DNA of 64,000 nt, from IMG/VR virus record IMGVR_UViG_3300022719_000152, positions 54,794-118,793 of that record; one strand, written 5' to 3'. The notes below the pieces were generated by a model. It searched no databases. It was not told the DNA's origin and saw only the letters and a program-made list of their open reading frames with translations. Made by a program: the position numbers and the translations under genes. Positions within the stretch are counted from its first letter, which is position 1; each line of letters starts with the position of its first letter. Shown piece after piece: positions 3,383-55,322 of the stretch. The DNA comes from a virus.

Positions 3383-3412
3383 CTTGTTCCGAAAAGGTTC
3401 CTACCTTTTCAA
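3383..3412 (-). promoter_or_regulatory. Putative phage promoter (bipartite motif, variant copy)
   Basis: Minus strand TTGAAA-N15-CGGAACAAG upstream of the 2198-3334 gene. Confidence 0.4.
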
Positions 3413-28100: not shown

Positions 28101-28458
28101 TCTTGTGGTGGACGAAGGGGTGGGCATCAAGGAACGTCTTGTGTCCATAGGGCGGAACGGTCTTCCCCGTGAAGTCATCCATGGGGTAATGGCCATTGAA
28201 CGTGAGGTGATTGTGGACGAGAGAGGATTCCGGGAAGACATCTCCGTTGACATTCTGCCCCCAATACTCTGAAGCGCCGAGAGCATTGACCAGAATGGGT
28301 ATCTTGCCTTCAACTGGTTTGTACTCGCTGAGCCACTTTTGGACATCGGGTAGCATGGTTCCTGCTACCTTCGTGATCTGGTCCCCGGGATGAAAGACTC
28401 GAGTGAGGGGCTCCCCTCCCTTCGAGACACCCTGGAATGTGGCTAGTTTAATAAGCAT
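25105..28458 (-). CDS. Prohead (maturation) protease with large insertions and extensions
   Basis: N-terminal domain has NVNGDVFP, HPFVHHKN, DVSMGC and FFDISFVFIGAD, an HK97/herpes-like Ser protease pattern. An internal PPase-like domain follows. Confidence 0.7.
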   Translation of the reverse strand: MLIKLATFQGVSKGGEPLTRVFHPGDQITKVAGTMLPDVQKWLSEYKPVEGKIPILVNALGASEYWGQNVNGDVFPESSLVHNHLTFNGHYPMDDFTGKTVPPYGHKTFLDAHPFVHHKNKDPSRAFGEVVVAVWNAKMRRVELVVILDRELASQHGAQHVVDKIDAGEYCDVSMGCKVPYDVCTCCGHKSRTTKDYCCCITQLGMGRILEDGRRVGVVNYHPRFFDISFVFIGADKTAKMMCKLASGVVVPQSVMDAELVYGISSNDDGVVKSSSMEKVAKAQGGEKRTYEVEGHPDVIKRIDVLLETMNRLGGWGSSRGLKLSIDGDGPEFLYVGGTKYKPNKEQLQRETEREDVNIGALTEPSQTSKNKMANVNLHTGAGVGGAYLAGDDVNRASDQEEFLSQRPDKKPDQVSFSNLDIPGDGKLLMSKEDPQTDRRLGDDVHGPLKTNDRMGRGTDDNEEYAPDHEPKTAGPDVVDLRHPEKYEPSSRLSEDYMVNPRERVSEQAKLGMTETDNIDVHSNPDENPKTVIKETERKIPVQSSMPDNVRKRPAEDANLAKLGASQRSKVMRFYTAKANLPKVWKDAKKIKIGPPPQPNRPDFPFVGTIKFRGLTINVENAPGTYRTGRGWQTKMHIPYGEFQKSEGTDGDPLDVYVGPYFDAPNVYIIHQNFVRGPNKGEHDEDKVMVGFKSIEQATNAYLAHYDKADYLRSVTTMTFDMFKKGLMKKQFHKEKVAFIDTQPGNVDLQLEDLFTSAQNQDARRRQRVWKNKGEDGKDHIRAEVTGSGMGSSEKAKQASAPRVPTAIDLLKMASDDKIASHLKWADIIKRVGPDKAVGRVAPALSESEPSLPPELLNEMGDCGLEGALATPTSMGMVLKPEEFQRIALAAMGKTDLADSLDNDSAVFKPVDGECAPCSPLSLDHSLEGLLDKLLPFLRDKSYFGPPLKRRIVRITIAAPAPRTPRKEVNSPLLSKVSAAYTWYRREQMKLAGDAAWAVPNNPKLHVALHGASLEDSFGKTASSGTVDPRTLAVVLGAIPITMMYSAHLQGKQRRGEEMGALRSFVAEHPWLTTMGVGAGLRELMKHPRSKELFDDLLVAGHKVWTGKGPPEVILPA

Positions 28459-31098: not shown

Positions 31099-31371
31099 GT
31101 GGGAAGAATAGAGAAAGATGGGGTTACACTAGTCAGCCTCGAGGAGGCCATGGAGCTCCTCGGCAAAAGCCGGCGCACCATATTTCGTATGGCTCGCAGA
31201 GGTGAAGTCGTAAAAGTCACCATAAAGCACCGTACTTACTTCACACTCTCCAGCATCAGCAACCACAAACCTCGAATTGGGCCACAAATTGCTCTACCCC
31301 CAGAAGACCCCAACCTCAAAGAGCTCCAACGCAAGGAGCTAGAGCGTCGGCATCCTGAAATCTACATCTGA
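31099..31371 (+). CDS. Excisionase/MerR-like HTH DNA-binding protein
   Basis: VSLEEAMELLGKSRRTIFRMARRGEV. Confidence 0.7.
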   Translation: MGRIEKDGVTLVSLEEAMELLGKSRRTIFRMARRGEVVKVTIKHRTYFTLSSISNHKPRIGPQIALPPEDPNLKELQRKELERRHPEIYI

Positions 31372-35516: not shown

Positions 35517-36389
35517 CTAGATCGGCTCAATCCCCATTCCGGTCTGTAGTTGGGCGATCTTGTCTGCAAGCCGCCGCATCAACTGTCGGCCAGCCTGGAA
35601 GAACTTCTCGTTGTGGTTGATAGCATCGTTGGACTCAGAATAGCTCAAACCTCGATTCACAGTCATGCCAACAACCAAGTCCTCCGGACAGTAGATTCCT
35701 TTCCACCTAAGGGTCCACTTCAATGAATCCACTGCTTGTCGGGTCGTGGGCTCTCCAAGTTGCTTGGCCACCATCATGTTCTTGGAGGGGAAAGACAGGG
35801 GCATGGGGAACCTCTCAGGCTCATCGGCGCCGTCGTCACCATGGACAAAAATAGCTGCCACCTTCCCCACAAGGTGATTCTTCATCAGGTGGTCATGTTT
35901 TCTAGCCTGGTCTAGGGCTCTTGTGAGCTCAGCGTTCTTTGACTTCTCTCTGTCGCCGTAGATCTCAAGAGCTTGGTCAGAGGTCATGGTGAGATTGACA
36001 CACACCAAGCGATCCATCATCTGCTTGATTCTACTGGTGACGGAGTACCAGTGAACGGGCGTGAAGAAGGCAAACCCATCAGCCGCTAGCATGCGCTCAT
36101 AGACCTTCATGTCATGCATGAAGTCCGGAAGCTCCGCCTCGTCACCGCTAGCTTGTGGGCCCCAACAATCGCATGGAAAATGGCAATGATACCCGCCTGC
36201 AGTGGACTGACATCCCTTGCACGGTTGAATCGGAATGTGCCCGTAGTTGACGCTCAGATCGAGGTAGTCAATCTCAACGTCGCTAGCTATCTCCGCTGCA
36301 GACGTGTGGGCCAGAGTACGAGTCTTGCCCCATTGGTTCGGACAGTTGCCTGGGTGCCGCGGGGACCCTTGGATGACCATGATCCTCAA
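35517..36389 (-). CDS. Flavodoxin-like iron-sulfur flavoprotein / FMN reductase family
   Basis: IQGSPR, PCKGC...HCHFPCDC, ADGFAFFTPVHWY, IKQMMDRL and LVGKVAA. Confidence 0.8.
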   Translation of the reverse strand: MRIMVIQGSPRHPGNCPNQWGKTRTLAHTSAAEIASDVEIDYLDLSVNYGHIPIQPCKGCQSTAGGYHCHFPCDCWGPQASGDEAELPDFMHDMKVYERMLAADGFAFFTPVHWYSVTSRIKQMMDRLVCVNLTMTSDQALEIYGDREKSKNAELTRALDQARKHDHLMKNHLVGKVAAIFVHGDDGADEPERFPMPLSFPSKNMMVAKQLGEPTTRQAVDSLKWTLRWKGIYCPEDLVVGMTVNRGLSYSESNDAINHNEKFFQAGRQLMRRLADKIAQLQTGMGIEPI

Positions 36390-36419: not shown

Positions 36420-36776
36420 ATGAACCTTCAAGACGCCAAAATAGCCCGTAAGCGGTTGGAGTGGGTGGACCACGCACGGGCGGGGATACTTCGTGCTGTC
36501 GGTGATGACATAGTCAGCACCAACTTCCAAGTATTCCCCACAGTGGACCCCATCAAATTCATTCTAAAAATACAACTGATACGACCTCTTGGGAAGGACA
36601 CTCGCAAGCCTCTGCGCAAATACATTCGTTGCTGGGCTAAAGAGTGGGACTGCGATCTACCCAGAATCGACATTGACAACAAGAAGATAACAGCAGAGGT
36701 CTTTACTAAACGGAGGCACTACAGAAGAGATGCAAAGGGCAAATTCACAGGTAAGACTCACGGCGGGCCTCGATGA
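36420..36776 (+). CDS. Hypothetical basic protein
   Basis: MNLQDAKIARKRLEW... The longer ORF-track version overlaps the flavoprotein gene on the opposite strand. Confidence 0.55.
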   Translation: MNLQDAKIARKRLEWVDHARAGILRAVGDDIVSTNFQVFPTVDPIKFILKIQLIRPLGKDTRKPLRKYIRCWAKEWDCDLPRIDIDNKKITAEVFTKRRHYRRDAKGKFTGKTHGGPR

Positions 36777-37374
36777 GGTTGGCATGGGATGCTTGGCAGG
36801 CCCCGTCACAGTCTGTGTGGTGGGGATGCCTCCCAACGTCACCCTCCTAGCAGGAGTCCGTGATTCAAAAAAAATGTCTGAGGAACAGCGCAACGCTGTC
36901 GCCCCTCAGATCGTAAAACTAGCTGAAGAGCACGGCTACTTCGGTATCGGCTGGGCTTCGCCTGGCTACATAGATGAGCACGGCATAGCCGAAGCATGGC
37001 AGAAGGCAGCGAGTGATGCTCTCGCTCGAGCGCCAGACGGCATGGAGCTCGTCATCGACGGCACCAGACCAGTCAAGTCGTACACCTACATCCAAAGAAC
37101 CGAGGTGAAGGCAGACGACAAATATTGGACGGTGGCGGCAGCAAGCGTGGTTGCCAAGACAGTTAGAGACCTTGGCATGCTAGACATGGGCCGGGAGTAC
37201 CCTGCCTACGGATGGGCTCGCAACGCTGGTTATGGGACAGAGGAGCATCGTCGTGCGGTCCTCCAATACGGTCCATGTGATTACCACCGCATGCGCTACC
37301 TCAAGAAAATGGTCCAGAAAGAAAACCCATTCTGGGGAGATCAGTATCGGCACTGGGCCAGCCGCAATAAGTGA
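36730..37374 (+). CDS. rnhB: Ribonuclease HII
   Basis: AGLDEVGMGCLAGP, DSKK, IDG, KAD, AAASVVAK, GYGT..H and HR motifs. Confidence 0.9.
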   Translation: MQRANSQVRLTAGLDEVGMGCLAGPVTVCVVGMPPNVTLLAGVRDSKKMSEEQRNAVAPQIVKLAEEHGYFGIGWASPGYIDEHGIAEAWQKAASDALARAPDGMELVIDGTRPVKSYTYIQRTEVKADDKYWTVAAASVVAKTVRDLGMLDMGREYPAYGWARNAGYGTEEHRRAVLQYGPCDYHRMRYLKKMVQKENPFWGDQYRHWASRNK

Positions 37375-37392
37375 AAGAAACCTCGGTATAAG
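37363..37392 (+). promoter_or_regulatory. Putative phage promoter
   Basis: CGCAAT-N15-CGGTATAAG upstream of the 37440 gene. Confidence 0.5.
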
Positions 37393-37439
37393 AAATGTGA
37401 GCGGCGAAAGCTGCCCAAAACCCTTTACCGGAGGAATTC

Positions 37440-38468
37440 ATGTCAGGTTACACAGCCGACATCCCACACTACTACGTAAACTTGGACCTGCCCGAGAAAT
37501 ACAGGTGGTCCAACGTTATCGAGTATGAAGGAGGTGTTGCACAGGAGTTGGCGGAAGCAGCCTGTGAAGAGATGGAGGAGGTGACCGATTTAATTCGATC
37601 ACCAGTGCTAAAGGCGTCCTTCTTTGCTCTCTACAGAATGTTTGGTGGGCTCTACGGAGGAGAGATAAGGGCCTGGGCCAAAACTATGGGAATCTCATCA
37701 GCGACTGCTGCAGTACTAAACTGCACCTACGAGCTGTCTCATGTGGCCGAGGGAATCATGCAGCCATTCGGGTGCACTGCTGGTGTGCGGTGGCTGCCCA
37801 ATGAAAAGAGAATGGTTCATGTCCGAAGCATGGACTGGCCCCTTGGGGAAATAGGAGATGCAACGAGAAGGTTCATCTTCCACAAAGGCGGACACATATT
37901 CGTCTCAGTGGGAGTGCCGGGATTCGTCGGCGTTCTCTCAGGGATGGTGCCGGGCGCGTACTCGGTTACCATCAACTGGGCACCCCCGCAGGGGATGCCA
38001 GAGTTTTCTTTTGGCCCCTCGTTCCTTCTTCGTCATGTGATGGAGACTTGCAAGACCTACGACGAGGCAGTCGAAGCTCTCTGCGAGACAGAACTAGCAA
38101 CCACTGTGTTCTACACAGTTTGTGGGACCAGGAAGAAAGAGGCGTGCGTCATTGAGCGAACGCCAGAAGAGTATTTGGTCAGGGAGATAGGCAACCAGCA
38201 CTGCCTGGTTCAAGCCAACCATCACGTTGGTCACGACTTTCTTGAGCTCAACGAAGTCATCAAAGTCGATGAGGGGGACGGCACCATCTTCGAAGATTCG
38301 AGATGTAGGGCATCTACCATGCGGAAGAAACTAAACCGGGCAAAAACAATCACTGGTGCCATCAGCGCCTTGAAAAGCCCCCCGGTGGAGAATGACTTCA
38401 GCTACCAACAGATGATCTTCTGCCCAGCGCAGTCAGAGATGTATACTTGGCGATGGGCTAGTGACTAA
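37440..38468 (+). CDS. Acid ceramidase/NAAA-like Ntn hydrolase
   Basis: VNLDLPEKYRW, an autoprocessing G|CTAG site, RSMDW, GFVGVLSG, ACVIER and LVQANH. GGAGG RBS. Confidence 0.8.
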   Translation: MSGYTADIPHYYVNLDLPEKYRWSNVIEYEGGVAQELAEAACEEMEEVTDLIRSPVLKASFFALYRMFGGLYGGEIRAWAKTMGISSATAAVLNCTYELSHVAEGIMQPFGCTAGVRWLPNEKRMVHVRSMDWPLGEIGDATRRFIFHKGGHIFVSVGVPGFVGVLSGMVPGAYSVTINWAPPQGMPEFSFGPSFLLRHVMETCKTYDEAVEALCETELATTVFYTVCGTRKKEACVIERTPEEYLVREIGNQHCLVQANHHVGHDFLELNEVIKVDEGDGTIFEDSRCRASTMRKKLNRAKTITGAISALKSPPVENDFSYQQMIFCPAQSEMYTWRWASD

Positions 38469-43517: not shown

Positions 43518-44660
43518 TTACTTCGTGAACGACACGCTCGACAATATCGTAGACACCTTTTGCTTCAACACGGCTGCTGTGGGAGCCAACTTCGACCCGG
43601 TCTGTGGGTCCACAATAGCGTCTATTACCGTGATGATTTCCTTTAGCAAAGTGGCCAGATCGTTTCCCTTGGGAATAGGCTGGTTGGCTCCATTGCCAAG
43701 GTTGATTTTGGGTGAGTCTACTGTGGCTTGGGTGGCCGCTTTGATCAGGGCATTCTTGCCGGCTTCTGCAGTCCAATCCCCCTGGGTGGCCTTCACGCTG
43801 ACGTTTTGGTCGGCTTGGACGCTGTGGTTCCCCTTCTCGGCCACCTGGGAGATATCCCCCTCTTTGGCCGTATGGGTGATGCTGTCTTTGGCTGTCAGCG
43901 ACCACGATTTCTCCAGGTTCCAGTTGACGTCGCCCTCGTTGGTGACACTCATCTGAACCTTGACCGGAGCCCCATCCTCACTGGACTCGTTGATTTTCAA
44001 CTCCAGTTTAGTGGGTTCACCATCCCCGTGGGAACCAATAGTCAGCTCAGCCACATGGGCTGGCTGATTGGCGACATCCTTGGCCTTGAGGGTGAGTTTG
44101 GTCGGGGAGGCCCCATCTGTAGTCTGATCGTCACGGTCTGTTGACCAAGTTAGCTCCCCACCAAAGGTGAAAAGCTCCCAGTTCTCACAGAAGTTGCGGA
44201 TCATATTGCGGATGGGAACATAGACAGTTTGGGCTATAGGGCCAGCCCCAATCTGAACCACCCCTCCTCGCCGAAGGATGACAAAGTTCTCGTCCCGGGT
44301 CCGCATCATCATGTCGCCGGGGTTGAGGTTGAGCCTGCCGGCGCGGAAACTGCCTCCCTCGAGCTGCTCATCGAAGGGGGCCTGGTACCCCAAGAGGAAC
44401 GGAGCCGAGAACCTTCCAGAGCTTGGCCAGCACAACCAAGCCAAGGCGCCCACCTCCGGTACCGCATAGAAGCCTTCACCATTGGCAAAGTGAAAGTAGG
44501 GGTTCATCACTTGGATGTCGAAGAACCTCTTGTTGGCATACTCACTGATGGCATCCACTGACCAGCCGTCAATATTCACATTGACGATGCGCACAGTCTC
44601 AACGTAGGCGGGGACGTACTCCCCTTCCATGACGCTGAATGGAGGTTGACCATGAGGCAT
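43518..44660 (-). CDS. Baseplate spike protein (gpV/gp5/VgrG-like OB fold plus beta-helix)
   Basis: Start MPHGQ overlaps the RNAP stop (TAATG). Contains AVPEVGA, repetitive beta strands and SPKINLG. Confidence 0.7.
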   Translation of the reverse strand: MPHGQPPFSVMEGEYVPAYVETVRIVNVNIDGWSVDAISEYANKRFFDIQVMNPYFHFANGEGFYAVPEVGALAWLCWPSSGRFSAPFLLGYQAPFDEQLEGGSFRAGRLNLNPGDMMMRTRDENFVILRRGGVVQIGAGPIAQTVYVPIRNMIRNFCENWELFTFGGELTWSTDRDDQTTDGASPTKLTLKAKDVANQPAHVAELTIGSHGDGEPTKLELKINESSEDGAPVKVQMSVTNEGDVNWNLEKSWSLTAKDSITHTAKEGDISQVAEKGNHSVQADQNVSVKATQGDWTAEAGKNALIKAATQATVDSPKINLGNGANQPIPKGNDLATLLKEIITVIDAIVDPQTGSKLAPTAAVLKQKVSTILSSVSFTK

Positions 44661-47600
44661 TAGTAAAGCCAGGGAGCTTCTTCGGTGCCTTTGCCGAATT
44701 CTTTGCCGTAAGCCATACCAGGTACGGGGTTGGTGCTGTGGAGCGCAGACCTCCAACCCTCCGCTGCAGCGTCAATGAGAGTACCCTTGAGCTTCTGGCT
44801 CTGCAGGCGAGCGATCCAGTCGGTCTGGAGCTCAAGTGGAAGTTGGTTCACCCCCTTGAGCATGGGTCGATAGACCACAGACTTCTTGCCCTTGGGGAGA
44901 TTGCGGTTGAACTTGTTGATCTCGGAGGTGGGCATTCGATCACCGCGGATGACATCCTCGTGATCCCCAGGGTCTAGTACCTCACTGAGGTTGGTCATGG
45001 CTCGGACGAAGGTCTCTGTGTTGCGCCGGCGAATGGGGGCTACCGACTCATACGTCCCCTGAATCTCGTCAGTCAGATACCGCTGCACGGAGTTAATGTT
45101 GGTGAGAGGGAGCATCTCCATTGGGTTCTTGGGGCCACTGGAGATAGCATCCCCGCGCCTGACCAGGTCACCTTTTTTTACCTTGAGCTTACGGCTCCCG
45201 GGGACGTAGTGGCGCTGCCCATGGATGTAAACACTCCAGCCACCAGCCTCGTCCTTCTTGACCTGCTCAATCTTTCCCTCTGCCTGAGCCAGAGTAGCTG
45301 AACCAGGTAGTTTCTTCGGAACATTGAGGAGCTGCTCCAACCTGGTGAAGACGTTAATAGCATCAGTACCTTTGGCGCCCACTACACCTCCGGTGTTGTG
45401 ACTGAGCAATCCGCCAACATAAAGCGTACCTGACTCAGTAGTTAGGTCGTAGACATAAGGCTCATCGTACAAGATCTCCCGGTTCAGAGTGAGGAGAACA
45501 TGCTTTTCAATTGAAGGCGGCCCTGAGGTAAGAGATTTCTTCTCAATCTGAGTCACTTTGATTGAATCTTCCAAAAGCGCACAAGCCAAAGGAGTCATAC
45601 GCAATCGGACTTTGAAGCCTTGCTTCCTGGTTATCTCTCCGATGGTAGTAGCAACAATAGAGGAATCGATACCAAGCCTGATCGCTACAAAAGCAACTTG
45701 CTGTGCTAATTCAAAACTGGTGGTATCAATCCCAATAGTATCTGGGCCATCTTTGTGGCGCTCCACTGTCCCATCACCATCAATGATCCCAGCCAGACAT
45801 CTTCTTAACCAATCCAAATCAAACTGGATGAATCTCGGGGGCAGAGATTTCTTGTGAGCATAACGCCCAAAAAGGGAATGGAATTTCGCCCCCAACGCAA
45901 GACTGTTTACAATGACTCTCTTTGTATAGACCCTAGGGCCGTGCCCACTAGCTTCTAGAGCAAGTACCAGCTTGTCTTTAATAGGTCCGTCGTTCTGAGC
46001 AAAATCTAGAGCATAAGGTTTCTTTTCCTGCATTCGAGCGTGCGATCTCTTGAAAGTCACGCATCCTTCAGCCAGGAACATCCCCACTACCCAAGGGTCT
46101 TCTCCTATGTATTTCTCAGCAATATCGTTTGTACACTCATGAGAAATTACCGGTTTGAGGTTCTTGTGTAAGAAGAATCTCTTAGGGTCCAACTCTGTCG
46201 GGGGCAAATATCCTACTTGTCCCACAGGCTTTCGCTCCTGAAACCGTTGAGCCTTTTTACATGATGGACAAACGGCCCTAGTGCCATTCTTCTTCAACCT
46301 ATGATAACCGCAAGACTCACACTGCACTGCATTCTGCCACACCGCTACAGGGTGATTGTCTTGACAAATGGTGACCAAGCCGCCACCGCTAAGCATTCTC
46401 ATGGGCCTAGAAGGTGCATGCCTACGAACATGAGTTACAGGCACCCACCCTTCTTTAGATAGAGTTTCTATGTTCGCGCCGCTCAAGTCTTTGATTTCTT
46501 CGTCACCTTCAACTTCAACATCCACCTGCATGGATTCAAAAAAGTCCTCCATGGTGACGGCGTAGGGCTCGCCCTCTAATCTTCGGACAAAGACTAAGCT
46601 GTCTGAGTGGTTACAGTGGAAAGCGTTCATTGAAAGCTGAGTAGCTGGTTCCCCCAAAGCATGGGCGGCCATAACGCCTACGTTGGTGCCCGGGTTGTGA
46701 ATCTCACCATTCTCGTTGAGACCATAGCACTTCCCACACATACCGTCGCCGTGCTCGCACTTCAAAGGAGAGCGCACGCGCACCTCGGAGACCTTGTTGT
46801 TTCTGAGTCGATTGACGACATCCGGGGTAATGAGAGTGCCAGCCGGGATTGTACCCTTTTCCTTTCCACCCTTGGTCCCTAGCTTGATTGCCCGAGAGGT
46901 GTAGCGGTCAAGGATGTCCCGATTATCCACCGGCAGGATAATGCCTTTCGACGTGCCGCAGTCTTCGTCTACCACCATCTGGTTCATCGTAGTTTGGATG
47001 AGTTGCTTGGACATGAGGCCCGGTCGCCATGTACCTTCGACGCGCCCAATGGTGCCCATACGGGCACCGTGCATAGAAGCCCAATAGGAACCGATATCCA
47101 GCCCTTCAGAGTAACTCTTGTTGATAGGTACCGGTACCGGCTTACCGCTGGAGTCTGCCACCAATACGGGGGCCAGGGTCATCTGCTTGAAGTTGTCCCA
47201 CTTACCTCTGGCTCCTGACTTGATCCAATCGTACATCCTATTGTCAGTCTTCTTGTCCATTCGCTTCTTGCCCTCTTTGTCGAGGGTGGCAGAGACCTTG
47301 GAGTAGAGGTTCACAATCTTCTCGGCTTTTTTGTCAGAAGACGCACGAGAGTTTCGTATCTTGGTCTCCTCCTTTGCCGCTGCAGCCATGAGAGAGTCAC
47401 GAAACCGTGAGTCCGACTCAAAATCTTTGAGACTGATGGATAGTCCCGTAGAATGCTCATTACCAATGTCCTTGAGGCGATCGGCTGCCCAACCAAAGTC
47501 ACCCGTGCTGTCCTTAGCAATGCGGGTCAAGAGATCGTTCAAGCTCTTTTTGTTTAGATTGAACGCTGGGTCATAGAGAATTCTCTCGTCTCGCACCTTT

Positions 47601-50600
47601 TCTGGTAGCGAGTGGTAGACCATCAATCGACCCATCGTTGTCTTGTTCTTCTTGGGCGCGCCTTCCTTCAGCAGAGACAATGGGTCCTTGTTGATGTCAG
47701 ACAGGTCGATGACCTCATTGAGGTCGATCTCTTTGTTCTTCGTGGCCTTCACTGCGTCTAAGAGATTGTCGAATTTCTTCCCTTTGTCTTTACCCATTTC
47801 GGTAAGCTTGTAGAGACCGAGCATAGCCTCCTGCTCTGGCTTGAACATGAGTGAGCCGGTAGAGGGGCTAAAAAGGTTATGCGACGGGACCATCTTGGAG
47901 GCTTCGCGCACCGCCGAGGGGCTTACTGGGACGAAGGCAGCCATCTTGTCACCATCGAAGTCAGCGTTGTACCCAGACGTAGCCAATGGATGGATCTTGA
48001 TGGCCTTCCCGTCAGTTAGGCGCGGCTTGAACGCTTGGACTCCAAACTTGTGCAGAACTGGGTCACGTTTCAGCAGTAGAGGCCTCTCATTCACAACCTT
48101 CTCTAGGTGCTTATCGGAAGCGATAGTGCTTTCCTTCACTTCCTTCTGGGCCTGTAGGGGTCGGTACCCTGAACGCACCATGCTCTGTACGACGAAAGGC
48201 TTGTAGAGTTCACGAGCTGCTTTATGAGGTATGCCCACCTCGTCGAGGGAGAGCGACGGCTCTGGAACAATAGTGCTGCGCATGGAGAGGTCTTGCCGAC
48301 GACCAATTATCTTGCTCTGGAAGAATCCTTCCTTGGGGCTGGCACCTGCGATGAGACCGGCGATTCCCTTGAGCTGCTTACCGTGGGAGGTGACTCCAGA
48401 CATGGTCAGCGACTTGAGTCCGTCGTACATCGTGGACTCCAGCTTCGTCTTCTCCTCCGGAGGAAGGGCAGGATCGAACGTTTTGATTTGGTCGTTGGTC
48501 GCGCCCACCAACTGATAGATGCGGTTGAGGTCGTCGAGGTTCAACTGGCCATCATCACGCACCATCACCGGCCGCATGGTCGGAGGCAGCACCGGCAAGT
48601 GTCGCATGGTGTACGCCTCGGTGGGCTTCATGCCGGCACGCTTGAGGGCGTTCAGGTACTTGAGTTTCTTGTTGGCGTCGTTCAGCTTGTTCGTTCGTAG
48701 CTTAGGTATCTCGGCCTGGATATTCTTCATCTCTCCATCGATATCGATTTGCTTCAGCTTGGAGATGATGGCTTCCGGGCCGGTCTTACCGTCCAACTCC
48801 TCTTTGCCATTGATGATTGCAGAGAACTGCTTCTTCTTCAGACCCAACAGAGATTGGACAGGAGTCTCAAACACGGGGTTTGGCATTCGAGATTCGAGCT
48901 TGATGTGCGACCACTTGCCGCCGAGATGACCCTCGGGCCACTTGGTCCCCGTAACATCCGGGTCAAAGATACCGCCCTTCTCTGGCTTGAGCTTACTACC
49001 TTGCAGAGCTCGAGAGGGCCGCTTGAGCTCGCCGTTGGACATGGCCAAGGTCTTCTTGTCCGTAAGCGGGGCCAAGAAGAGGTCGTTACCGTCCTTCTGA
49101 ACGTCTAGACCCATGCCCTTGAGGTACCCCTCAAATTTCTTCCACACGAATGGGATCTTTGGGGTGGGTATTGAGGAGCCGGACTGAAGCTGCACCCAGA
49201 ACTCATCGTTTTTATCCGATTTATAGCTTTGCATCTCACGAACATTCTCTCGAGCATTGTGAGCAAGCATAGCGTAGAGACCCATAGCGTCCATCGTCTG
49301 AGCACCGTGAGGGCCTCCCTTCCTAGGGGCCATGTTGGAATCGTAGGCGTGACGAGAACGAACAGAGAGGCCCTTCTCAGCAGTGTGATGAAGTTTGTAG
49401 ATATACTGATCTCCAGTCAGTACCTTACCCAAAGACTTATTGGTGTTCGGGTCAAACAGCTCCTCTGTGTCACTGATACCTGCCTTCTTCAACTCGTCTT
49501 GAAGATCACGGGTGTAGTCCTTCTTAGAGGGGTCGAAGTTGTTGACGACGTAGGGCTTACCCTTCTTATCGGAAATCTTGGATGCTGCTGTCTCAAGAAC
49601 CTGCCCCAGATTGATACGAGTGGGGACTCCAGTTGGGTTGAGTAGCACCTGGACTGCATTTCCATCCTTGTCCTTAGGCATCTCATGGTCAGGGAGAATG
49701 TTGGTGATGATACCTTTGTTGCCGTGCCGGCCAACAATTTTGTCTCCTATATCCGCAGGAGCATCGGCCTTGATGTACACGGTGGTCTTCTTGCCATGCT
49801 TGACGACGCGGGTGACGGTACCGGGAGCGTCCTTCTCCCACCGAGTATCCCGGGCGCGCATGGGATTGAGACGCTTCTTTGAGAACAGGCCCAGCATCTG
49901 TTGCTCTGGAGTGACGAGCTCCTTGCGCAGAGCTCCTATGATGACGTCGCCAGGCTCTACACGCTGGCCCTCCATGATTACTGCGTTGTCATCAAGCTTA
50001 TCTGCTTGCTCTCTGGTGACCTGGCCCGCTGTCTGGGCGAGGAACTTCTTCTTGTTGAGGACGGTATTCTTGTCAGCTTGCACGTTGTTGCGAAACATAT
50101 GCTCAGACGTGAGCTTCTTCGCTGCCGAATCGGAGATGACGATGCCATCCTCGAAGTTGTACCCCTGATAAGGCATGTAGGCGACCCGGAGGTTGGTGCC
50201 CAGGGCCAGCGTACCATCCTTGGTGAAGTTGGTGTCCGCAACCGGCTGGCCGGCTTTGACCTGGTCACCTTTTTTGACGATAGGAGTTGAATTGATGACA
50301 CTCTTGTCATCATTCAGTGGGAAGTCGTCGTAGAGTTGTACCTCATGTCGTTTCCCATCGTCTCCGCGGATGACCACACCATCTTTCTTGATCTTCTCTA
50401 CCTTGCCAGCGACAGGAGACATGTGTGAAACGAATGAGCCGACGAGCTGCTCCCAAGTGGCTGGGGTATCAGAGCGGACCTGGACCTTAGGCTGCTCTCT
50501 GTCCTTGAGAGCGACGGCTTGCTCAATCTGCTTGGCGGCCACCATGGTTCGATTGCCCTGGTTGTTCTGCAAGAAGGGGATCATGTTGGCGCTGAGGTCA

Positions 50601-52054
50601 AACATGCCCTTGGAGGACTTCAGAACGTAGTCCACGTCAGAGGGCTTGGACAGTATGGTCGTACCCTCCTTATCCGAGATCTTCACCAGTCGGCCCACCG
50701 GCTTCATCTCACCATTCTTCATCTCATACTGATCTGGGTACGCGACATTGGACGTGAGCGCAGTGGCCGGATCAATCCACTCGGTCTTCTTGGTCTTGGT
50801 GTTGTAAGCACGGACCTTGAGATCTTTCCCCCTCTTCTCAGCACCCAAGGAGAGCTGCAGCGTCGTACCAATCTTAGCCGACTCTGGGGTCTGGATGGGA
50901 TCAAGGAACCCCATGTGGCTTGGGTTGATGAGCTTGGCCGCGTCCGTCACCTGGTGAATTGAGCCGATACCTCCCTCGCCCAACACAGTCGTTCGACGGT
51001 TCCCTGATATGTAGCTCATGGGGTTCATCTGGTCTGGCTGGCTGGAGAGGTTGGAGGAAGAGAAGAAGCTACGTATGGGCTTGCCAAATTGCTCTGGGTT
51101 GATGATCTCCTTGACCTTGGTCTTCTTGTCCACGTTGTTGGAGATTTTGCGGCGCACGTTCCACTTGTCGTTGCGCTCGAAACGATCCACCAGCAAGTCC
51201 TCGGCAGACATCAGATCCTTGAACCGGAGAGAGTCCCTATCGTCAGTCTTTTCTTCCTGTCGAGATACACGTAGGATCTTGTGCGAGCCGTCGAGGAGAG
51301 CGCTCCCGGTGACCTTGTCATAAGGAGTTCCCAATGTGACTTTTGTAGAATCTGGACGCAGCACAGTGCGCTCCATCTCCTCCTTGATCTTCTCCCGGGC
51401 CTCTTCCATTGACTCTGGGTTCTCACCCGTCATCGACTTGTAGAACTTCTTCAACGCTACGTCGTGCTTCTCCTTCTGGTTGGCAGAGAGAATCTCTTTG
51501 CCCCAGCGCCGCTCTATCGTGTCGTCGTCAACCCCCATCTCTTTGAGAATCGGGTACAGGGCAATGTTTGCATTCTTACCCTGATGCTTCATCGTCATCT
51601 TCTTGGTCTTGGGGTCGAAGTTCATTTCGAACCCAAGACCCTTGGCAAGGTTCCACTGAGATGCAATGTCGCCGTTGTCCTTCACTCGGGTGTAGACGCC
51701 AGACTTCAACCGGAACTGGTTGTTCACCTGGTACTCGTTGCCGTTGACAATGTAGGTGTATCGATTGGTGACCTTGGGGAGTTGGGCGACAGTAACGGCT
51801 TGGCGGTCTTTCACCTTGCCTGTTTTGTTGTCCACGAGCTCTACTTCGGCTCGGACAGGCACTGACCAGGTCTGGTCTTTAAGCTTGGCCTGCTTTTGGC
51901 TCCGGATATCGTCGATATCCTTGTTGTCATCCACCCAGACCTTGTTCACCTGAAGGGTGTTCTTCTTACCCTCTATAGGAAACTGGTCTTTGACGACCAT
52001 GGATACTCGATCTTTGAGTGTGCTGAATGCGTCTTGTGGTTCCCAGTGTGCCAT
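44660..52054 (-). CDS. rpoBC: DNA-directed RNA polymerase, fused beta-beta' single chain, with intein
   Basis: Beta motifs: YIVNG, DPIQTPE, GYNFED, GDKIVGRHGNKG, YKLHH. Beta' motifs: LPVLPP, RDPVLH, NADFDGD, RSPLKC, GEPATQL. Confidence 0.95.
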   Translation of the reverse strand: MAHWEPQDAFSTLKDRVSMVVKDQFPIEGKKNTLQVNKVWVDDNKDIDDIRSQKQAKLKDQTWSVPVRAEVELVDNKTGKVKDRQAVTVAQLPKVTNRYTYIVNGNEYQVNNQFRLKSGVYTRVKDNGDIASQWNLAKGLGFEMNFDPKTKKMTMKHQGKNANIALYPILKEMGVDDDTIERRWGKEILSANQKEKHDVALKKFYKSMTGENPESMEEAREKIKEEMERTVLRPDSTKVTLGTPYDKVTGSALLDGSHKILRVSRQEEKTDDRDSLRFKDLMSAEDLLVDRFERNDKWNVRRKISNNVDKKTKVKEIINPEQFGKPIRSFFSSSNLSSQPDQMNPMSYISGNRRTTVLGEGGIGSIHQVTDAAKLINPSHMGFLDPIQTPESAKIGTTLQLSLGAEKRGKDLKVRAYNTKTKKTEWIDPATALTSNVAYPDQYEMKNGEMKPVGRLVKISDKEGTTILSKPSDVDYVLKSSKGMFDLSANMIPFLQNNQGNRTMVAAKQIEQAVALKDREQPKVQVRSDTPATWEQLVGSFVSHMSPVAGKVEKIKKDGVVIRGDDGKRHEVQLYDDFPLNDDKSVINSTPIVKKGDQVKAGQPVADTNFTKDGTLALGTNLRVAYMPYQGYNFEDGIVISDSAAKKLTSEHMFRNNVQADKNTVLNKKKFLAQTAGQVTREQADKLDDNAVIMEGQRVEPGDVIIGALRKELVTPEQQMLGLFSKKRLNPMRARDTRWEKDAPGTVTRVVKHGKKTTVYIKADAPADIGDKIVGRHGNKGIITNILPDHEMPKDKDGNAVQVLLNPTGVPTRINLGQVLETAASKISDKKGKPYVVNNFDPSKKDYTRDLQDELKKAGISDTEELFDPNTNKSLGKVLTGDQYIYKLHHTAEKGLSVRSRHAYDSNMAPRKGGPHGAQTMDAMGLYAMLAHNARENVREMQSYKSDKNDEFWVQLQSGSSIPTPKIPFVWKKFEGYLKGMGLDVQKDGNDLFLAPLTDKKTLAMSNGELKRPSRALQGSKLKPEKGGIFDPDVTGTKWPEGHLGGKWSHIKLESRMPNPVFETPVQSLLGLKKKQFSAIINGKEELDGKTGPEAIISKLKQIDIDGEMKNIQAEIPKLRTNKLNDANKKLKYLNALKRAGMKPTEAYTMRHLPVLPPTMRPVMVRDDGQLNLDDLNRIYQLVGATNDQIKTFDPALPPEEKTKLESTMYDGLKSLTMSGVTSHGKQLKGIAGLIAGASPKEGFFQSKIIGRRQDLSMRSTIVPEPSLSLDEVGIPHKAARELYKPFVVQSMVRSGYRPLQAQKEVKESTIASDKHLEKVVNERPLLLKRDPVLHKFGVQAFKPRLTDGKAIKIHPLATSGYNADFDGDKMAAFVPVSPSAVREASKMVPSHNLFSPSTGSLMFKPEQEAMLGLYKLTEMGKDKGKKFDNLLDAVKATKNKEIDLNEVIDLSDINKDPLSLLKEGAPKKNKTTMGRLMVYHSLPEKVRDERILYDPAFNLNKKSLNDLLTRIAKDSTGDFGWAADRLKDIGNEHSTGLSISLKDFESDSRFRDSLMAAAAKEETKIRNSRASSDKKAEKIVNLYSKVSATLDKEGKKRMDKKTDNRMYDWIKSGARGKWDNFKQMTLAPVLVADSSGKPVPVPINKSYSEGLDIGSYWASMHGARMGTIGRVEGTWRPGLMSKQLIQTTMNQMVVDEDCGTSKGIILPVDNRDILDRYTSRAIKLGTKGGKEKGTIPAGTLITPDVVNRLRNNKVSEVRVRSPLKCEHGDGMCGKCYGLNENGEIHNPGTNVGVMAAHALGEPATQLSMNAFHCNHSDSLVFVRRLEGEPYAVTMEDFFESMQVDVEVEGDEEIKDLSGANIETLSKEGWVPVTHVRRHAPSRPMRMLSGGGLVTICQDNHPVAVWQNAVQCESCGYHRLKKNGTRAVCPSCKKAQRFQERKPVGQVGYLPPTELDPKRFFLHKNLKPVISHECTNDIAEKYIGEDPWVVGMFLAEGCVTFKRSHARMQEKKPYALDFAQNDGPIKDKLVLALEASGHGPRVYTKRVIVNSLALGAKFHSLFGRYAHKKSLPPRFIQFDLDWLRRCLAGIIDGDGTVERHKDGPDTIGIDTTSFELAQQVAFVAIRLGIDSSIVATTIGEITRKQGFKVRLRMTPLACALLEDSIKVTQIEKKSLTSGPPSIEKHVLLTLNREILYDEPYVYDLTTESGTLYVGGLLSHNTGGVVGAKGTDAINVFTRLEQLLNVPKKLPGSATLAQAEGKIEQVKKDEAGGWSVYIHGQRHYVPGSRKLKVKKGDLVRRGDAISSGPKNPMEMLPLTNINSVQRYLTDEIQGTYESVAPIRRRNTETFVRAMTNLSEVLDPGDHEDVIRGDRMPTSEINKFNRNLPKGKKSVVYRPMLKGVNQLPLELQTDWIARLQSQKLKGTLIDAAAEGWRSALHSTNPVPGMAYGKEFGKGTEEAPWLY
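45395..46615 (-). mobile_element. Intein in the RNAP beta' trigger loop (407 aa) with LAGLIDADG endonuclease
   Basis: AFH|CNHSDS ... VYDL...LSHN|TGG, with GMFLAEG and LAGIIDGDG. Visibly more AT-rich than its flanks. Confidence 0.9.
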
Positions 52055-52134
52055 TCTCGCCTTCCGTGCCTAGTCGCTGGCGATGCTTGTCGCCTCAAAG
52101 CCCAGAGGATTCAAAGGGTTGCCCAATAGTACCT

Positions 52135-52164
52135 CGGAAACCCCAAGTAGCAAATGGGTATAAG
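52135..52164 (+). promoter_or_regulatory. Putative phage promoter
   Basis: CGGAAA-N15-GGGTATAAG, divergent from the RNAP gene. Confidence 0.55.
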
Positions 52165-52215
52165 ACAGTTGAGGCCCGAATCATAGCCAAAACCAATACC
52201 GGAAAAGGGAATATT

Positions 52216-52368
52216 ATGAGCAGAACTGGATCTACAACTAGCTTCTTCCAATCAGCCTTGTCTTCAGCAGTAGGAGGAAACTCCTCGTGGGGATCTGGGT
52301 CAGGAAGCAGCACAAGCAGTAGTGGAAAGAGTTCCAAGGGAAGCAACGCTAAGGGCAAAGGAAAGTGA
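52216..52368 (+). CDS. Small Ser/Gly-rich peptide (50 aa)
   Basis: Purine-rich RBS-like stretch and MSRTGSTTSFFQSALSSAVGGNSSWGSG..., directly behind the promoter motif. Confidence 0.45.
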   Translation: MSRTGSTTSFFQSALSSAVGGNSSWGSGSGSSTSSSGKSSKGSNAKGKGK

Positions 52369-52460
52369 GCATTTTCTTTTGGTCGATTGTTGCTGGAGCT
52401 CTGTTCAGATTCAGACACGATCTCATTCGTGAGGTCAATCGGCACCTCGCCGAAGCGTAA
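52365..52460 (+). CDS. Small hydrophobic peptide (31 aa)
   Basis: GTGA overlap with the previous ORF and AAAGGA RBS. Translates as MSIFFWSIVAGALFRFRHDLIREVNRHLAEA. Confidence 0.4.
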   Translation: MSIFFWSIVAGALFRFRHDLIREVNRHLAEA

Positions 52461-52466
52461 ATCTAC

Positions 52467-52874
52467 ATGGTCACATGCCTGATTTGCGATGAGCCACTAC
52501 TCGGGCCAGTGGCAATTCGTATACGGCAGGGGTGTGTCCGCAATTTCAAGTGGGGGACGACGATAGCAGAGACGATGGGGTTTAGGGACGGGTCCACAAT
52601 CAAGTGGGTCTGTAAAAGGTGCGCCATAGAGCGGTGCATCTTCCCGAACACCCTTGAGGATAAAACCTGCTTCTTGTGTAACAAGGGGTTCGTTTCTACG
52701 TTGCAACCCCATGCGGACATAGTCCTCCTAGTAGAAAAATGCCTGTTGAAGCCCAGCACCAAAGGGAAGCGACTGGCAGTGAAACCTCTCCAGGGAGGCC
52801 ACGTCCACAATGACTGTGCATGGAAAGATTGGGATCTGCCGTTATGGAAACTGCAGTCAAGAGACATCGCGTAG
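52467..52874 (+). CDS. Cys/His-rich Zn-finger protein
   Basis: CLIC, CKRC, CFLC and HNDC. Confidence 0.55.
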   Translation: MVTCLICDEPLLGPVAIRIRQGCVRNFKWGTTIAETMGFRDGSTIKWVCKRCAIERCIFPNTLEDKTCFLCNKGFVSTLQPHADIVLLVEKCLLKPSTKGKRLAVKPLQGGHVHNDCAWKDWDLPLWKLQSRDIA

Positions 52875-53125
52875 TTCCAGCGAAGGCAGTTCCCCGTCGC
52901 AAGTGTGATCACTGCGCTCGTGAGACTGACATGGTCATCATCACGAGAAGGACGTTCTACCCCCGAAGGGGAGAAACAGAAACTCTGATATTCTGCTCTG
53001 AAATCTGCGAGCGGGAGTATCTCTATGACGACGTGCTCGCCGCGGATGTCCAGCAGCGCGTGGACGATGAGCTCGCCGGCGTCAAGAGTACTCTATGCTC
53101 CGCTTGCAGACGTAAGGTGGAATAG
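52844..53125 (+). CDS. Zn-finger protein (TRASH/MYM-like)
   Basis: CDHC...FCSEIC and CSAC. Confidence 0.55.
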   Translation: METAVKRHRVVPAKAVPRRKCDHCARETDMVIITRRTFYPRRGETETLIFCSEICEREYLYDDVLAADVQQRVDDELAGVKSTLCSACRRKVE

Positions 53126-53133
53126 GAAGGAGC

Positions 53134-53162
53134 GAGGGGCCGGCGCCGGCCCCTCATTTTTT
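53134..53162 (+). terminator. Rho-independent terminator
   Basis: Perfect 22-bp palindrome GAGGGGCCGGCGCCGGCCCCTC followed by ATTTTTT. Confidence 0.75.
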
Positions 53163-53255: not shown

Positions 53256-55322
53256 TCAGATCATGGTGGCTTCAGGGCCGCGCTGAGGGGGTCGCTGCTC
53301 AGGCAGCGGCATGGCAGCAGAGTTCTGCTGAGCCCCTGTAGCAGATTGCATGATGGGTAGGATGAGTTGGTAGAGCTGTGGGTTCTTCTGGCGAATGCTT
53401 ACGAGCTCTGCTTGGCGCTGGTCGTCGGGAAGTTGGTTCAGCCATGCAACAACCTTCTGTGCGATCACCATGACGTCGTAGCCTGCGCCGGCCTGCTCTC
53501 CACCCACAGGAGATTGAGATCCCTCCATCCCTGGAGGAGCTGAAGCGCCTTGCTCTTGAGCTGCTGCTTGCTCGGCCGCGGGGTCCATTGGGGCTGCGGG
53601 TGGGATCTCCATGCCTGGGACCTGACCGGCAGCGTTCATCATGCCAGTCTCTTGGTTGATCATCTGGCCTACTGCAGCCGGGCTGGCCTGTCCAGGTATA
53701 CCAGCGGTGGGCATAGGCTCTGTGGCCGGCATACCCATAGCTGCAGCATCGGGAGTCTGCTCCATCATCATCTTCTGGCCGCGGAGCTGGTACTTCGCCA
53801 TGACCATTTGGCTCTCGCCCTGGATGCGAGCCTGCGCTAGAGCTTGCCGACGCTGACCTTCGAGGATGTACTTGCGCTCCTCCTCGATACGGTCTTGTTC
53901 CTTCCTCGAATCCCAGTTGGTGTCCTCGAGCAGAGAGTTGTCCGAGATCTTGCCAGCCTGATTGAGCTGAAGATTGAATGCGGCCCGCTGCAGATCATCA
54001 GCCAGCTTGAACGGCTTGTAGCGAACGTTGACTGGAGCCCAGCCCATGAACGAGGCGATCTGGGGGATGACAAAGTCGAGGACCATAGTCTTTCGCTGAC
54101 TGCGCTGGTCTTCAAAGTGGTTCTCCAAGATACGCATGGAGACGTTAGACCCGGAGTACTGCATCCCTCCGAATACAAACTCGATGGGCACTCCCATACC
54201 GGCAACGATGTGCTCCGACCACTGACGGTACTCTTGGGCCAGCATGAGAGCTCGACCGTCACCACCCAGAGACTCCTGACCCACGGGGAGTGGGAGGATT
54301 GGGATGTAGTTGTTGTCGAGCCGCCAGCGGATGATCTCTTGTTCGATCTTGTCTCGCCACTGGGTCATGTTGATGGTCGTGTAGACGTCGGAGGTGCCAC
54401 TGGCTGACTGTGGGAAGAGGATGCGCAGGGGCACAATGTGTTCGATGGCGATAGCTTCCTGCGCCTTGCGCAGAATCTGCAGGTAGAAAGTGTCCTTCAA
54501 TACCGGCAAGACCATCGGCAGGCCCCAACCCTTGTCCTTCTGAGCAATGGTTGGGCGCTGCAGGTGGTAAATGTTGTTCTTGTTGAACAGCACCGCCTTG
54601 TTCTTGCGGAGCGCTTCAATGAAGACCTGCGGAATGTTCTCTATGATGTGGCGCTTCGACATACGCACGTCGTTCGCCATCGAGGGGGGTATGGTGTAGT
54701 AGTACCGACTTTCCCCCGTTGCTTCATTGTGTTGGACCGTGATGTTCTCTGGGTTCCAACGGATGAGTCGAATGTCTCTCACCGAGCGGATATAGAGATC
54801 CTGGACAATGAACTCTCCGTAGTGCCCACAGCGGCTGCAGTTACCGATGAACTGGTACTCACGAAAGATGTATTTCTGGCGTTGAACCTTCTCGTAGTGA
54901 CCGCAGCTCTTGCACTTGAGGTGCTTGATGAAGGGAAAATAGACGGAGATGAATGAGTTGCCGTAGACGTTGTAGTCGAGCCCTGCTTCAATCTCGAACT
55001 GCTTGTAGTTGAGCACCCTCTTGAATAGGTAGTCCCACTTCTTTCGGAGCTCTTCGCTCCCCTCATCCACGATCATATCGGTGACCGGGTACTCTGCCAT
55101 CTTGTAGCAAGTGGCGTTGATGAGGGGGTTAGTGAGGAAGTAGTACCGGCACCACCGAAGCATCGTTTTGTACGATGTCGGTAGATAGGTGTGAGCAATA
55201 TCGAAGAACGGGGAGGGGTACCGAATCGCACCTAGAGCCTCACCAGTGATGGACCGACCACTGTTGCGAGCGAATCGAAACCCACCAGAGGGGCCGAAAT
55301 TGAGTGCGTCTATCTGAGCCAT
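53256..55322 (-). CDS. Portal protein with a Zn-ribbon insertion and a Q/P/A-rich tail
   Basis: YYFLTNPLINA...YPVTD, DYNVYGNSF, RWNPENI, IYHL...GWGLP and GMGVPIEFVFG portal-like pattern, plus CKSC...CSRC. Confidence 0.75.
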   Translation of the reverse strand: MAQIDALNFGPSGGFRFARNSGRSITGEALGAIRYPSPFFDIAHTYLPTSYKTMLRWCRYYFLTNPLINATCYKMAEYPVTDMIVDEGSEELRKKWDYLFKRVLNYKQFEIEAGLDYNVYGNSFISVYFPFIKHLKCKSCGHYEKVQRQKYIFREYQFIGNCSRCGHYGEFIVQDLYIRSVRDIRLIRWNPENITVQHNEATGESRYYYTIPPSMANDVRMSKRHIIENIPQVFIEALRKNKAVLFNKNNIYHLQRPTIAQKDKGWGLPMVLPVLKDTFYLQILRKAQEAIAIEHIVPLRILFPQSASGTSDVYTTINMTQWRDKIEQEIIRWRLDNNYIPILPLPVGQESLGGDGRALMLAQEYRQWSEHIVAGMGVPIEFVFGGMQYSGSNVSMRILENHFEDQRSQRKTMVLDFVIPQIASFMGWAPVNVRYKPFKLADDLQRAAFNLQLNQAGKISDNSLLEDTNWDSRKEQDRIEEERKYILEGQRRQALAQARIQGESQMVMAKYQLRGQKMMMEQTPDAAAMGMPATEPMPTAGIPGQASPAAVGQMINQETGMMNAAGQVPGMEIPPAAPMDPAAEQAAAQEQGASAPPGMEGSQSPVGGEQAGAGYDVMVIAQKVVAWLNQLPDDQRQAELVSIRQKNPQLYQLILPIMQSATGAQQNSAAMPLPEQRPPQRGPEATMI

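Follow-up and report, generated by a model that had tools for sequence, protein, structure and literature searches.

Cellular-type RNA polymerases (RNAPs) of bacteriophages have so far been met as split pieces (phiKZ, AR9), as separate beta and beta' genes (mReC) or as single chains too divergent to be aligned (crAss, YonO). Here, we describe an enzyme encoded in a window of 64,000 nucleotides, positions 54,794 to 118,793 of the IMG/VR virus record IMGVR_UViG_3300022719_000152, which is linear, 138,638 bp long and estimated to be 70% complete. A single open reading frame (ORF) on the minus strand of this window (44660..52054, 2464 aa plus stop) encodes a precursor with one intein, and its product is a bacterial-type two-barrel RNAP core with beta and beta' on one chain. 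Phage-encoded cellular-type RNAPs are already known, and the fused lineage adds a new form to them. New from this window are a trigger-loop intein together with a map of intein sites in the family, an explanation for the missing sigma gene and statistics on a motif of virion-block proteins. A description of a fused beta-beta' phage RNAP of ~2055 aa was not found in the literature covered, which excluded bioRxiv supplements.

The nearest cultured relatives are the Vibrio phages D69, D148 and D181 (30% identity, 80% coverage) and Salmonella phage Arash (OQ632216; 34% identity over aa 15-1451), with coverage ranging from 58 to 80%. Their RNAPs share a clade with the window protein in both of our trees, also have beta fused to the N-terminal half of beta', and are encoded just downstream of a portal gene on the same strand. 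In contrast to the continuous, intein-bearing window chain, beta' is divided over two genes in Arash, namely gp206 (1525 aa, beta plus beta'N) and gp216 (606 aa, beta'C) about 5 kb apart, and D69 has a like arrangement of 1527 and 609 aa. In the part of the Arash paper available to us, the two are annotated as 'subunit beta' and 'beta'' and the fusion goes unremarked (PMC10585845). The mReC enzymes, as far as the accessible text describes them, likewise stem from uncultured large tailed phages, are recognised as beta and beta' by cellular hidden Markov models (HMMs) and form a clade apart from cells, but there each of the two subunits has its own ORF, with two sets on some contigs (Weinheimer and Aylward, 2020; PMC7481178), a comparison made from the published descriptions. 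The same text mentions fusion only for crAss phages (PMC7481178).

Enzymes of the phiKZ/AR9 type are also phage two-barrel RNAPs without alpha, and their virion form is packaged, but they consist of four to five polypeptides in two sets and use no sigma factor, as stated in the accessible part of a jumbo-phage overview, which there describes split or YonO-type enzymes only (PMC7824862). The present lineage, in contrast, has a single set made of a single chain, and its relatives carry sigma-like genes. The position of the beta' split is similar: PHROG models of the phiKZ/AR9-type beta'N pieces match and end near aa 1400-1412 of the window protein. With crAss gp66 and YonO it shares both barrels on one polypeptide; crAss gp66 is virion-packaged too, but these enzymes are described, in the text available, as undetected by standard beta/beta' HMMs (PMC7481178). 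The window protein, on the other hand, matches Pfam models with E 1e-57 and 2e-29 and keeps almost the whole bacterial architecture. In the cellular rpoBC fusions of Helicobacter and Wolbachia, the C-terminus of beta is joined to the N-terminus of beta', and these are ordinary cellular cores with alpha, omega and a host sigma; the window protein differs from them in being phage-encoded, not nested among bacteria and devoid of the beta' N-terminal zinc finger.

The lineage combines a near-complete bacterial-type core in one polypeptide with its own sigma-like factor and no alpha gene in genomes of 140-200 kb. Should it prove active by itself or together with one small factor, the enzyme would offer a compact model of core assembly without alpha, give synthetic biology a bacterial-type RNAP in a single gene and serve well as a marker of a very large group of uncultured phages.

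Architecture of the single chain and its intein

The ATG at 52054 is the likely start, since the N-terminus MAHWEPQDAF matches homologs such as P0005 (MAHYDPQDAF). A first-pass annotation, made from the letters of this DNA without database searches, had claimed one ORF with beta motifs followed by beta' motifs, and this holds: the single frame of 2464 codons contains, in this order, the Pfam domains Rpb2_3 (aa 341-405), Rpb2_6 (PF00562; aa 581-904, E 1.1e-57), Rpb1_1 (aa 1100-1193), Rpb1_2 (PF00623; aa 1300-1389, E 1.6e-29), Rpb1_3, Rpb1_4 and an interrupted Rpb1_5 (aa 1651-2365). The beta-like part (aa 1 to ~996; 49067..52054, minus strand like all parts of this gene) holds Rpb2_3 and Rpb2_6 as well as the motifs GEGGIG at aa 359 and GRHGNKG at aa 775. 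With phmmer, it matches PDB beta chains (E 4e-85), aa 13-220 and 257-986 corresponding to residues 39-251 and 406-1157 of a 1250-aa bacterial beta. The beta' N-extein (aa ~997-1813; 46616..49066) comprises the clamp, the catalytic double-psi barrel and the bridge region up to the trigger-loop His 1813, with the catalytic Mg-binding NADFDGD (aa 1363-1369; 47948..47968) inside Rpb1_2; aa 1077-1817 align with E. coli beta' 166-940 (PDB chains), and the best beta' match has E 1e-117. The beta' C-extein (aa 2221-2464; 44663..45394) is recognised by Pfam, and aa 333-601 of Arash gp216 map to it. The two top PHROG families, 25354 and 24349, carry no assigned function, and weaker matches go to the PHROG families of split jumbo-phage enzymes named 'RNA polymerase beta subunit'. 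This ORF is the sole RNAP beta-type match in the whole record.

The junction of the two subunits spans aa 974-1005 (49040..49135; FEGYLKGMGLDVQKDGNDLFLAPLTDKKTLAMS), and the string FEGYLKGMGLDV, quoted in the first-pass annotation for a junction near 49100, indeed begins at aa 974 (window ~49135). A search with the sequence alone (151 aa against PDB) gave chance matches only, and a profile from 14 family members was used instead, run against RpoB and RpoC of eight bacterial loci. The profile positions 968-998 are matched by the C-terminal end of bacterial beta (for Treponema, residues 1137-1167 of 1179) and the positions 989-1037 by residues 9-59 of bacterial beta'. Since the C-terminus of beta and the N-terminus of beta' overlap on the profile, the subunits are joined almost end to end, by FEGYLKGMGLDVQKDGNDLFLAPLTDKK (aa 974-1001, window ~49050-49135). 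In an AlphaFold2 model of aa 960-1560, built on an alignment of 69 sequences (mean predicted local distance difference test score, pLDDT, 87.2), the junction appears as an ordered element, a helix with a hairpin (block pLDDT 89-98), and without a floppy linker; by Foldseek, this model resembles bacterial beta' chains (E 1.9e-37, TMq about 0.6).

After removal of the intein, the extein is exactly 2057 aa long, and E. coli beta plus beta' amount to 1342 + 1407 = 2749 aa (PDB chain lengths), so that both lengths given earlier, about 2057 and about 2750 aa, were right. The term 'minimized' that was attached to them fits in so far as the enzyme is somewhat trimmed, but is overstated: E. coli is an unusually large yardstick, and compared with Bacillus subtilis, whose PDB chains have 1193 and 1199 aa, the enzyme is shorter by about 335 aa. 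Two losses in the profile alignment account for most of this difference: about 115 aa of beta are missing between Bacillota beta residues ~254 and ~369, and in the zinc-finger region at the N-terminus of beta', about 45 profile positions stand in for bacterial residues ~47-154. As aa 960-1300 are free of cysteine, the four-Cys zinc element of the beta' N-terminus is absent; a second Cys cluster (1699, 1766, 1773, 1776) is kept. Apart from these two losses, both chains extend in the alignment to near the bacterial ends.

Rpb1_5 is interrupted by an intein of 407 aa (aa 1814-2220; 45395..46615) between H1813 and T2221. Its splice residues are intact, with Cys1 (C1814), H2219-N2220 at the end and the +1 Thr (T2221), and it contains a CxxC...CxxC ribbon and a LAGLIDADG endonuclease domain (LAGLIDADG_3, PF14528, aa 2082-2136, E 3.9e-8; PF05204, E 1.6e-4). 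The borders are confirmed by the intein-free homologs P0005 and P0007, in which ...LSMNAFH is directly followed by TGGVVGAKG... across the site. In the phmmer alignment, H1813 falls at about E. coli beta' 936, which we take to be the trigger-loop histidine. Because the unspliced protein would have a broken trigger loop, splicing would be obligatory, and judged from its residues the intein is predicted to splice.

The best 120 of 2910 homologs include 71 proteins of 1990-2110 aa, 46 with inserts >100 aa and 3 shorter fragments. A crude BLAST-gap mapping of these 120 places about 27 insert events among the 46 insert-bearing proteins at the trigger-loop site, 12 near position 390, 10 beside the NADFDGD loop (~1372) and others at 775-830 and ~940, with the site left unresolved in 4 long proteins. 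At the level of these sequences, the repeated occupancy of the trigger-loop site is the pattern of an active homing site. Inteins of this family sit at catalytic hot spots (trigger loop, beside NADFDGD, near GRHGNKG) and offer a natural catalogue of homing sites.

Besides, the terminase large-subunit ORF of the same window (31362..35516, minus strand) has 1384 aa compared to 532 aa in Arash. Pfam finds an intein in it (Intein_splicing plus LAGLIDADG_3, aa ~117-524), and as terminase aa 883-1121 are similar to the endonuclease part of the RNAP intein (E 4e-6), a second intein is probable in this protein.

Relatives and phylogeny

In the word-indexed search from which the homologs stem, 7999 candidates were scored and 2910 proteins reached E <= 0.001. 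The top 120 have bit scores of at least 1999, lengths of 1402-3719 aa and identities of 35-67%. At least 117 are full-length fused relatives, from JGI, ENA, Logan and NCBI sources and on contigs of up to 200 kb, and some bear the JGI pipeline label 'beta subunit/beta' subunit'. Near-identical DNA was not found in the 'phages' collection. In GTDB genomes, 79 of the 80 kept loci were ordinary rpoB-rpoC pairs with 25-32% identity. The 80th, a 204,271-bp contig (L048) in a Bacteroidales metagenome-assembled genome, encodes a full-length single-chain RNAP with an insert (38% identity over the full length). It groups with viral contigs in the tree, and the contig probably belongs to a phage and was binned wrongly.

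Two trees were built on the beta core plus the beta' core. In the first (71 rows, 1034 columns, LG+G4, quick search), 40 bacterial rows with at least 10 phylum labels lie on one side of a branch with SH-aLRT 100, 25 family rows including Arash and D69 form one clade (SH-aLRT 100), and the window protein adjoins P0005 and L011. The second (38 rows, LG+C20 PMSF mixture model) returns the identical split of bacteria and family with support 100 and 99, its 16 family rows being held together at 99. Both are quick, unrooted searches without bootstraps and without Archaea, the bacteria come from 2 of 64 collection parts, and several rows of other phages are long branches whose placement is unsafe. 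With this sampling, the sequences support a distinct phage RNAP lineage outside the sampled bacteria. Of the 'distinct class' proposed at first, the separation from these bacteria therefore stands, but the enzyme is no one-off, as it belongs to a large family that pipelines already label beta/beta'.

Within the family, the single-chain state is found in the core clade, in G001 and in a 36%-identity group (G002 and G003, with open frames of 2052 and 2040 aa) as well as in the 71 homologs of 1990-2110 aa, and the split type in G004 (open frame of 1499 aa) and L022; in these unrooted trees, either state may be the ancestral one. The RNAP of G001 shares 63% identity with the window protein; the G001 record has 202,100 bp and terminal repeats, and its completeness is estimated at 100%. 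Each of the four related records G001-G004 has one RNAP gene.

Proposed sigma partner and packaging, and the LLKEGA loop

The reading that we favour, and regard as reasonably probable, is that the spliced 2057-aa enzyme is the phage's only RNAP, works with a phage sigma-like factor and is likely packed into the particle to transcribe early genes. The precursor would be a single beta-beta' chain with the intein directly after the trigger-loop His; once the intein has spliced out, the 2057-aa enzyme would pair with the sigma-like factor and function without alpha. Both proteins would be loaded into the virion, a head protease might cut the chain between E and G of LLKEGA, and the packaged RNAP would then transcribe the early genes of the phage.

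That neither alpha nor sigma is recognisable in the window had been noted before, and the search of the rest of the record was negative as well. Reading this as sigma independence is not supported, since the record is without ~50 kb where G001 has a sigma-like gene. In an ORF-by-ORF comparison, G001 1-47 kb corresponds to this record from 96 kb to its end and G001 96.5-106 kb to its first 10 kb. The part in between, G001 47-96.5 kb, maps between the two ends of this record and has almost no counterpart in it, with one weak match (8e-6) to the last gene. The sigma-like ORF of G001 (256 aa, 80.5-81.3 kb; Sigma70_r3 25.9 bits at a cut-off of 25.3, C-terminal helix-turn-helix) lies in this part, and the absence of a sigma gene from the record is therefore uninformative. 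Six-frame scans returned nothing for PF04542 and PF01000 and only E 0.016 for PF04545; tblastn with Arash gp10 found no sigma in the record, and with the G001 ORF the best E was 0.36. Among the relatives, strong Sigma70_r2 matches (5e-19 and 1.5e-22) come from a 276-aa ORF in G002 and G003, which also carry a second, r3-type ORF, Arash gp10 matches Sigma70_r3 (E 9e-9), and in Cobetia phage Carin-5 sigma adjoins separate beta and beta' genes. For the alpha families PF01000 and PF01193, nothing rose above noise in any of the four records G001-G004, two of which are complete. By its gene content, the lineage appears to bring sigma but no alpha, and may use host alpha.

Two sigma candidates within the window were discarded: the 237-aa ORF 24286..24999 lies at the position of the Arash sigma gene gp10 (BLASTP E 4.3, no Pfam match) and was rejected because G001 keeps that region plus a separate sigma-like gene, and the 142-aa ORF 3401..3829 (Sigma70_r4, E 0.016) was unsupported by the protein-level scan. 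A terminator consensus scan showed no enrichment.

The argument for packaging starts from gene position. As the first-pass annotation had it, the RNAP gene lies inside the structural block, in a series of minus-strand genes extending from about 58359 to 38465, where it is flanked on the same strand by the portal gene and a spike-like gene. The portal gene (688 aa; 53256..55322, minus strand) was found by tblastn with the Arash portal gp204 (E 3e-86, 32% identity). Arash has the order portal, small ORF, RNAP, like the window, and the upstream portal is shared in D69. The next gene (380 aa; 43518..44660, minus strand) has an ATG that overlaps the RNAP stop TAA (TAATG), its start being extended to this point, and its G001 homolog is 51% identical; the overlap described earlier is thus real, but the label 'spike' stands on weak matches only (DUF2345, 8.6e-5; Phage_base_V, 0.096). 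In mass spectrometry of Arash particle preparations, as given in the part of the study available, Gp206 ranks top of all proteins (3516 spectra, 100% coverage), and Gp216 (1210 spectra) and the sigma-like Gp10 (467 spectra, 100% coverage) are present (PMC10585845). By analogy with this proteome and from the gene position, the window enzyme is likely virion-packaged.

The single LLKEGA that had been pointed out in a variable loop is indeed there in one copy (aa 1461-1466; 47657..47674, minus strand), and may be cut by a maturation protease. In the model of aa 960-1560, pLDDT internally falls to <50 at aa 1458-1466 (LSLLKEGA) only, so that the loop is probably disordered. The beta' split of the Arash and D69 type coincides with it; in Arash, the C-terminus of gp206 (...PIKIG) and the N-terminus of gp216 (MMTQIITPGALL) map to aa ~1452-1472. 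Exact LLKEGA or L.KEGA did not hold as a repeated motif, with 1 and 2 matches in the proteome and 1 in G001. A generalised motif was derived from the 69 aligned RNAP loops: in the closer members, the loop insert ends in hydrophobic-x-K-(L/E/M/T/Q)-(S/G/A)-(A/S), 4-8 residues before a conserved TTxGR. Counted on the other proteins, with the RNAP and the sigma-like ORF excluded, this motif has 16 matches in the present record compared to 5.9 expected, a number reached by 0 of 200 within-protein shuffles, and 21 compared to 6.9 in G001 (0 of 200 shuffles). Neither genome showed enrichment of seven control variants (reversed, swapped, K replaced by R/E/D, tail swap, hydrophobic residue left out); a further variant, in which the hydrophobic residue is moved by one position, was enriched in this record but not in G001. 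Of the 16 matches, 13 lie in the minus-strand virion block 10044-58359 (12,836 aa), with borders drawn by hand from the annotation, and 3 in the other 29,974 aa, a ten-fold higher density in the block (binomial p 3e-5). In 755 bacterial ORFs from 79 loci, 30 matches were counted compared to 47.2 expected.

Beyond these two genomes, the Vibrio D69 locus has 11 matches vs 1.4 expected (0 of 100 shuffles) and L011 has 5 vs 1.1. In close relatives, sigma-like proteins carry the motif at residues ~9-15 (ILELLKEGAKKE, ILELVKEGAKKE, NTSLKEAMAG), within an N-terminal extension that distant homologs lack. Counting against a protease site, the 36%-identity group (L018, L021, L023) has 0 matches and Arash 2 vs 1.4 expected. 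The head proteases of T4 and phiKZ cut after Glu. Tentatively, we see in the generalised motif a short linear signal shared by proteins of the virion block, for which the site of a maturation protease would be the simplest explanation, although we would not bet on this interpretation. Equally speculative is a packaged pro-enzyme: after loss of the intein, the RNAP and its sigma-like factor would enter the prohead, where a maturation protease with the recognition motif hydrophobic-x-K-E-(G/A)-(A/S) would cut the RNAP between E and G of LLKEGA into just the two chains that Arash and D69 have in separate genes, and would trim a short N-terminal targeting peptide from sigma, the motif marking virion cargo throughout the lineage. 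If the motif is a protease site, virion cargo would become predictable from sequence alone.

Two further proteins are rich in such motifs. A 269-aa ORF of D69 downstream of the RNAP genes (L003 20626..21435, plus strand) accounts for five of the 11 matches at the D69 locus, with five spaced (V/N/T)KEA(S/A) repeats, e.g. ...VKEAS and ...NKEAS, and suggests a scaffold or internal protein that is processed into fragments. In the window, a 1117-aa virion-block protein with an InPase domain (25105..28458, minus strand; E 1.5e-29) has four copies of the generalised motif, the maximum of the record.

Several findings weigh against the favoured reading of a packaged, sigma-guided enzyme. Pfam detects neither alpha nor sigma in the window (55 ORFs) or the rest of the record (136 ORFs), an omega gene is not visible in the record either, and since no sigma is seen there, the partner of this enzyme is deduced from its relatives. 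A k-mer search of 103 upstream regions gave no strong promoter signal, and sigma-70-like sites are not enriched (5 found vs 8.6 expected). Exact LLKEGA occurs once in this proteome, the strict loop motif is present in 24 of 69 rows (the window protein and 23 of 68 homologs, many others matching loosely), distant family members lack the loop insert, and no head-block ORF matches a prohead protease family in Pfam or PHROGs. The Arash proteome comprises 116 of 272 proteins including replication enzymes, and its authors, in the available part of the paper, allow for carry-over of abundant ones (PMC10585845); packaging is therefore not proven even in Arash, whose RNAP is only 34% identical to this protein.

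A rival reading is an RNAP that stays outside the virion and is made after infection from host-transcribed early genes, to serve middle or late transcription. One RNAP per genome fits such a post-infection synthesis equally, as phiKZ-type packagers have a second set according to the accessible part of the overview (PMC7824862), and the enzyme-rich Arash preparation may reflect carry-over (PMC10585845). However, the gene lies in the same-strand virion block and is coupled to the next structural gene, Gp206 has the highest spectral count of all Arash proteins in the data available (PMC10585845), and the virion-block motif is found both in the RNAP loop and at the N-termini of the relatives' sigma-like proteins. 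We therefore rate this alternative as unlikely, if still worth considering, and prefer a packaged enzyme.

Far less probable is that the gene is inactive because its intein disrupts the trigger loop and no longer splices. The intein does sit directly after the trigger-loop His, where an unspliced protein would be crippled, but Cys1, His-Asn and the +1 Thr are all intact, the frame is open over 2464 codons, about 27 insert events at the same site follow the pattern of active homing, and the record has no other RNAP gene. A recent capture of a bacterial rpoBC fusion of the Helicobacter or Wolbachia type, or an assembly chimera of rpoB and rpoC, would share the order of beta before beta' with cellular rpoBC operons and fusions. 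This origin, which the first-pass annotation had named as one outcome that would overturn its claim, is hardly conceivable: the best bacterial matches are 25-32% identical (79 of 80 GTDB loci), the split between bacteria and family has 99-100% support, and the fused architecture recurs in at least 117 full-length relatives, on >100 independent contigs and in complete phage genomes with terminal repeats. Capture or chimera is thereby refuted within the bacterial sample of 40 rows from 2 of 64 collection parts, without Archaea.

Neighbouring genes and other features

Two small ORFs of 116 and 149 aa (52095..52912, minus strand) without family match lie between portal and RNAP, and several large proteins without family match follow the 380-aa gene. 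Farther on the minus strand come the terminase, the 1117-aa InPase-domain protein, the major head protein and the tail sheath. The virion block is broken by genes for RNase HII, an acyl-CoA:6-APA acyltransferase-like protein (AAT) and an FMN reductase-like protein (36730..38468, plus strand, and 35517..36389, minus strand), the RNase HII and AAT genes being on the opposite strand to the block.

A GC-rich palindrome at 53134..53155, after the portal gene and before the ORF that follows it on the minus strand, forms a strong hairpin of 9 pairs (8 G-C), with a T-run on the plus strand and an AT-rich inverted repeat alongside; it may be a terminator or regulatory site. Outside the window, the same phage record encodes a BCS1-like AAA ATPase (C1:17401..18708; BCS1_N, E 2.8e-28) and a Cpn10-like co-chaperonin (C1:4371..4736).

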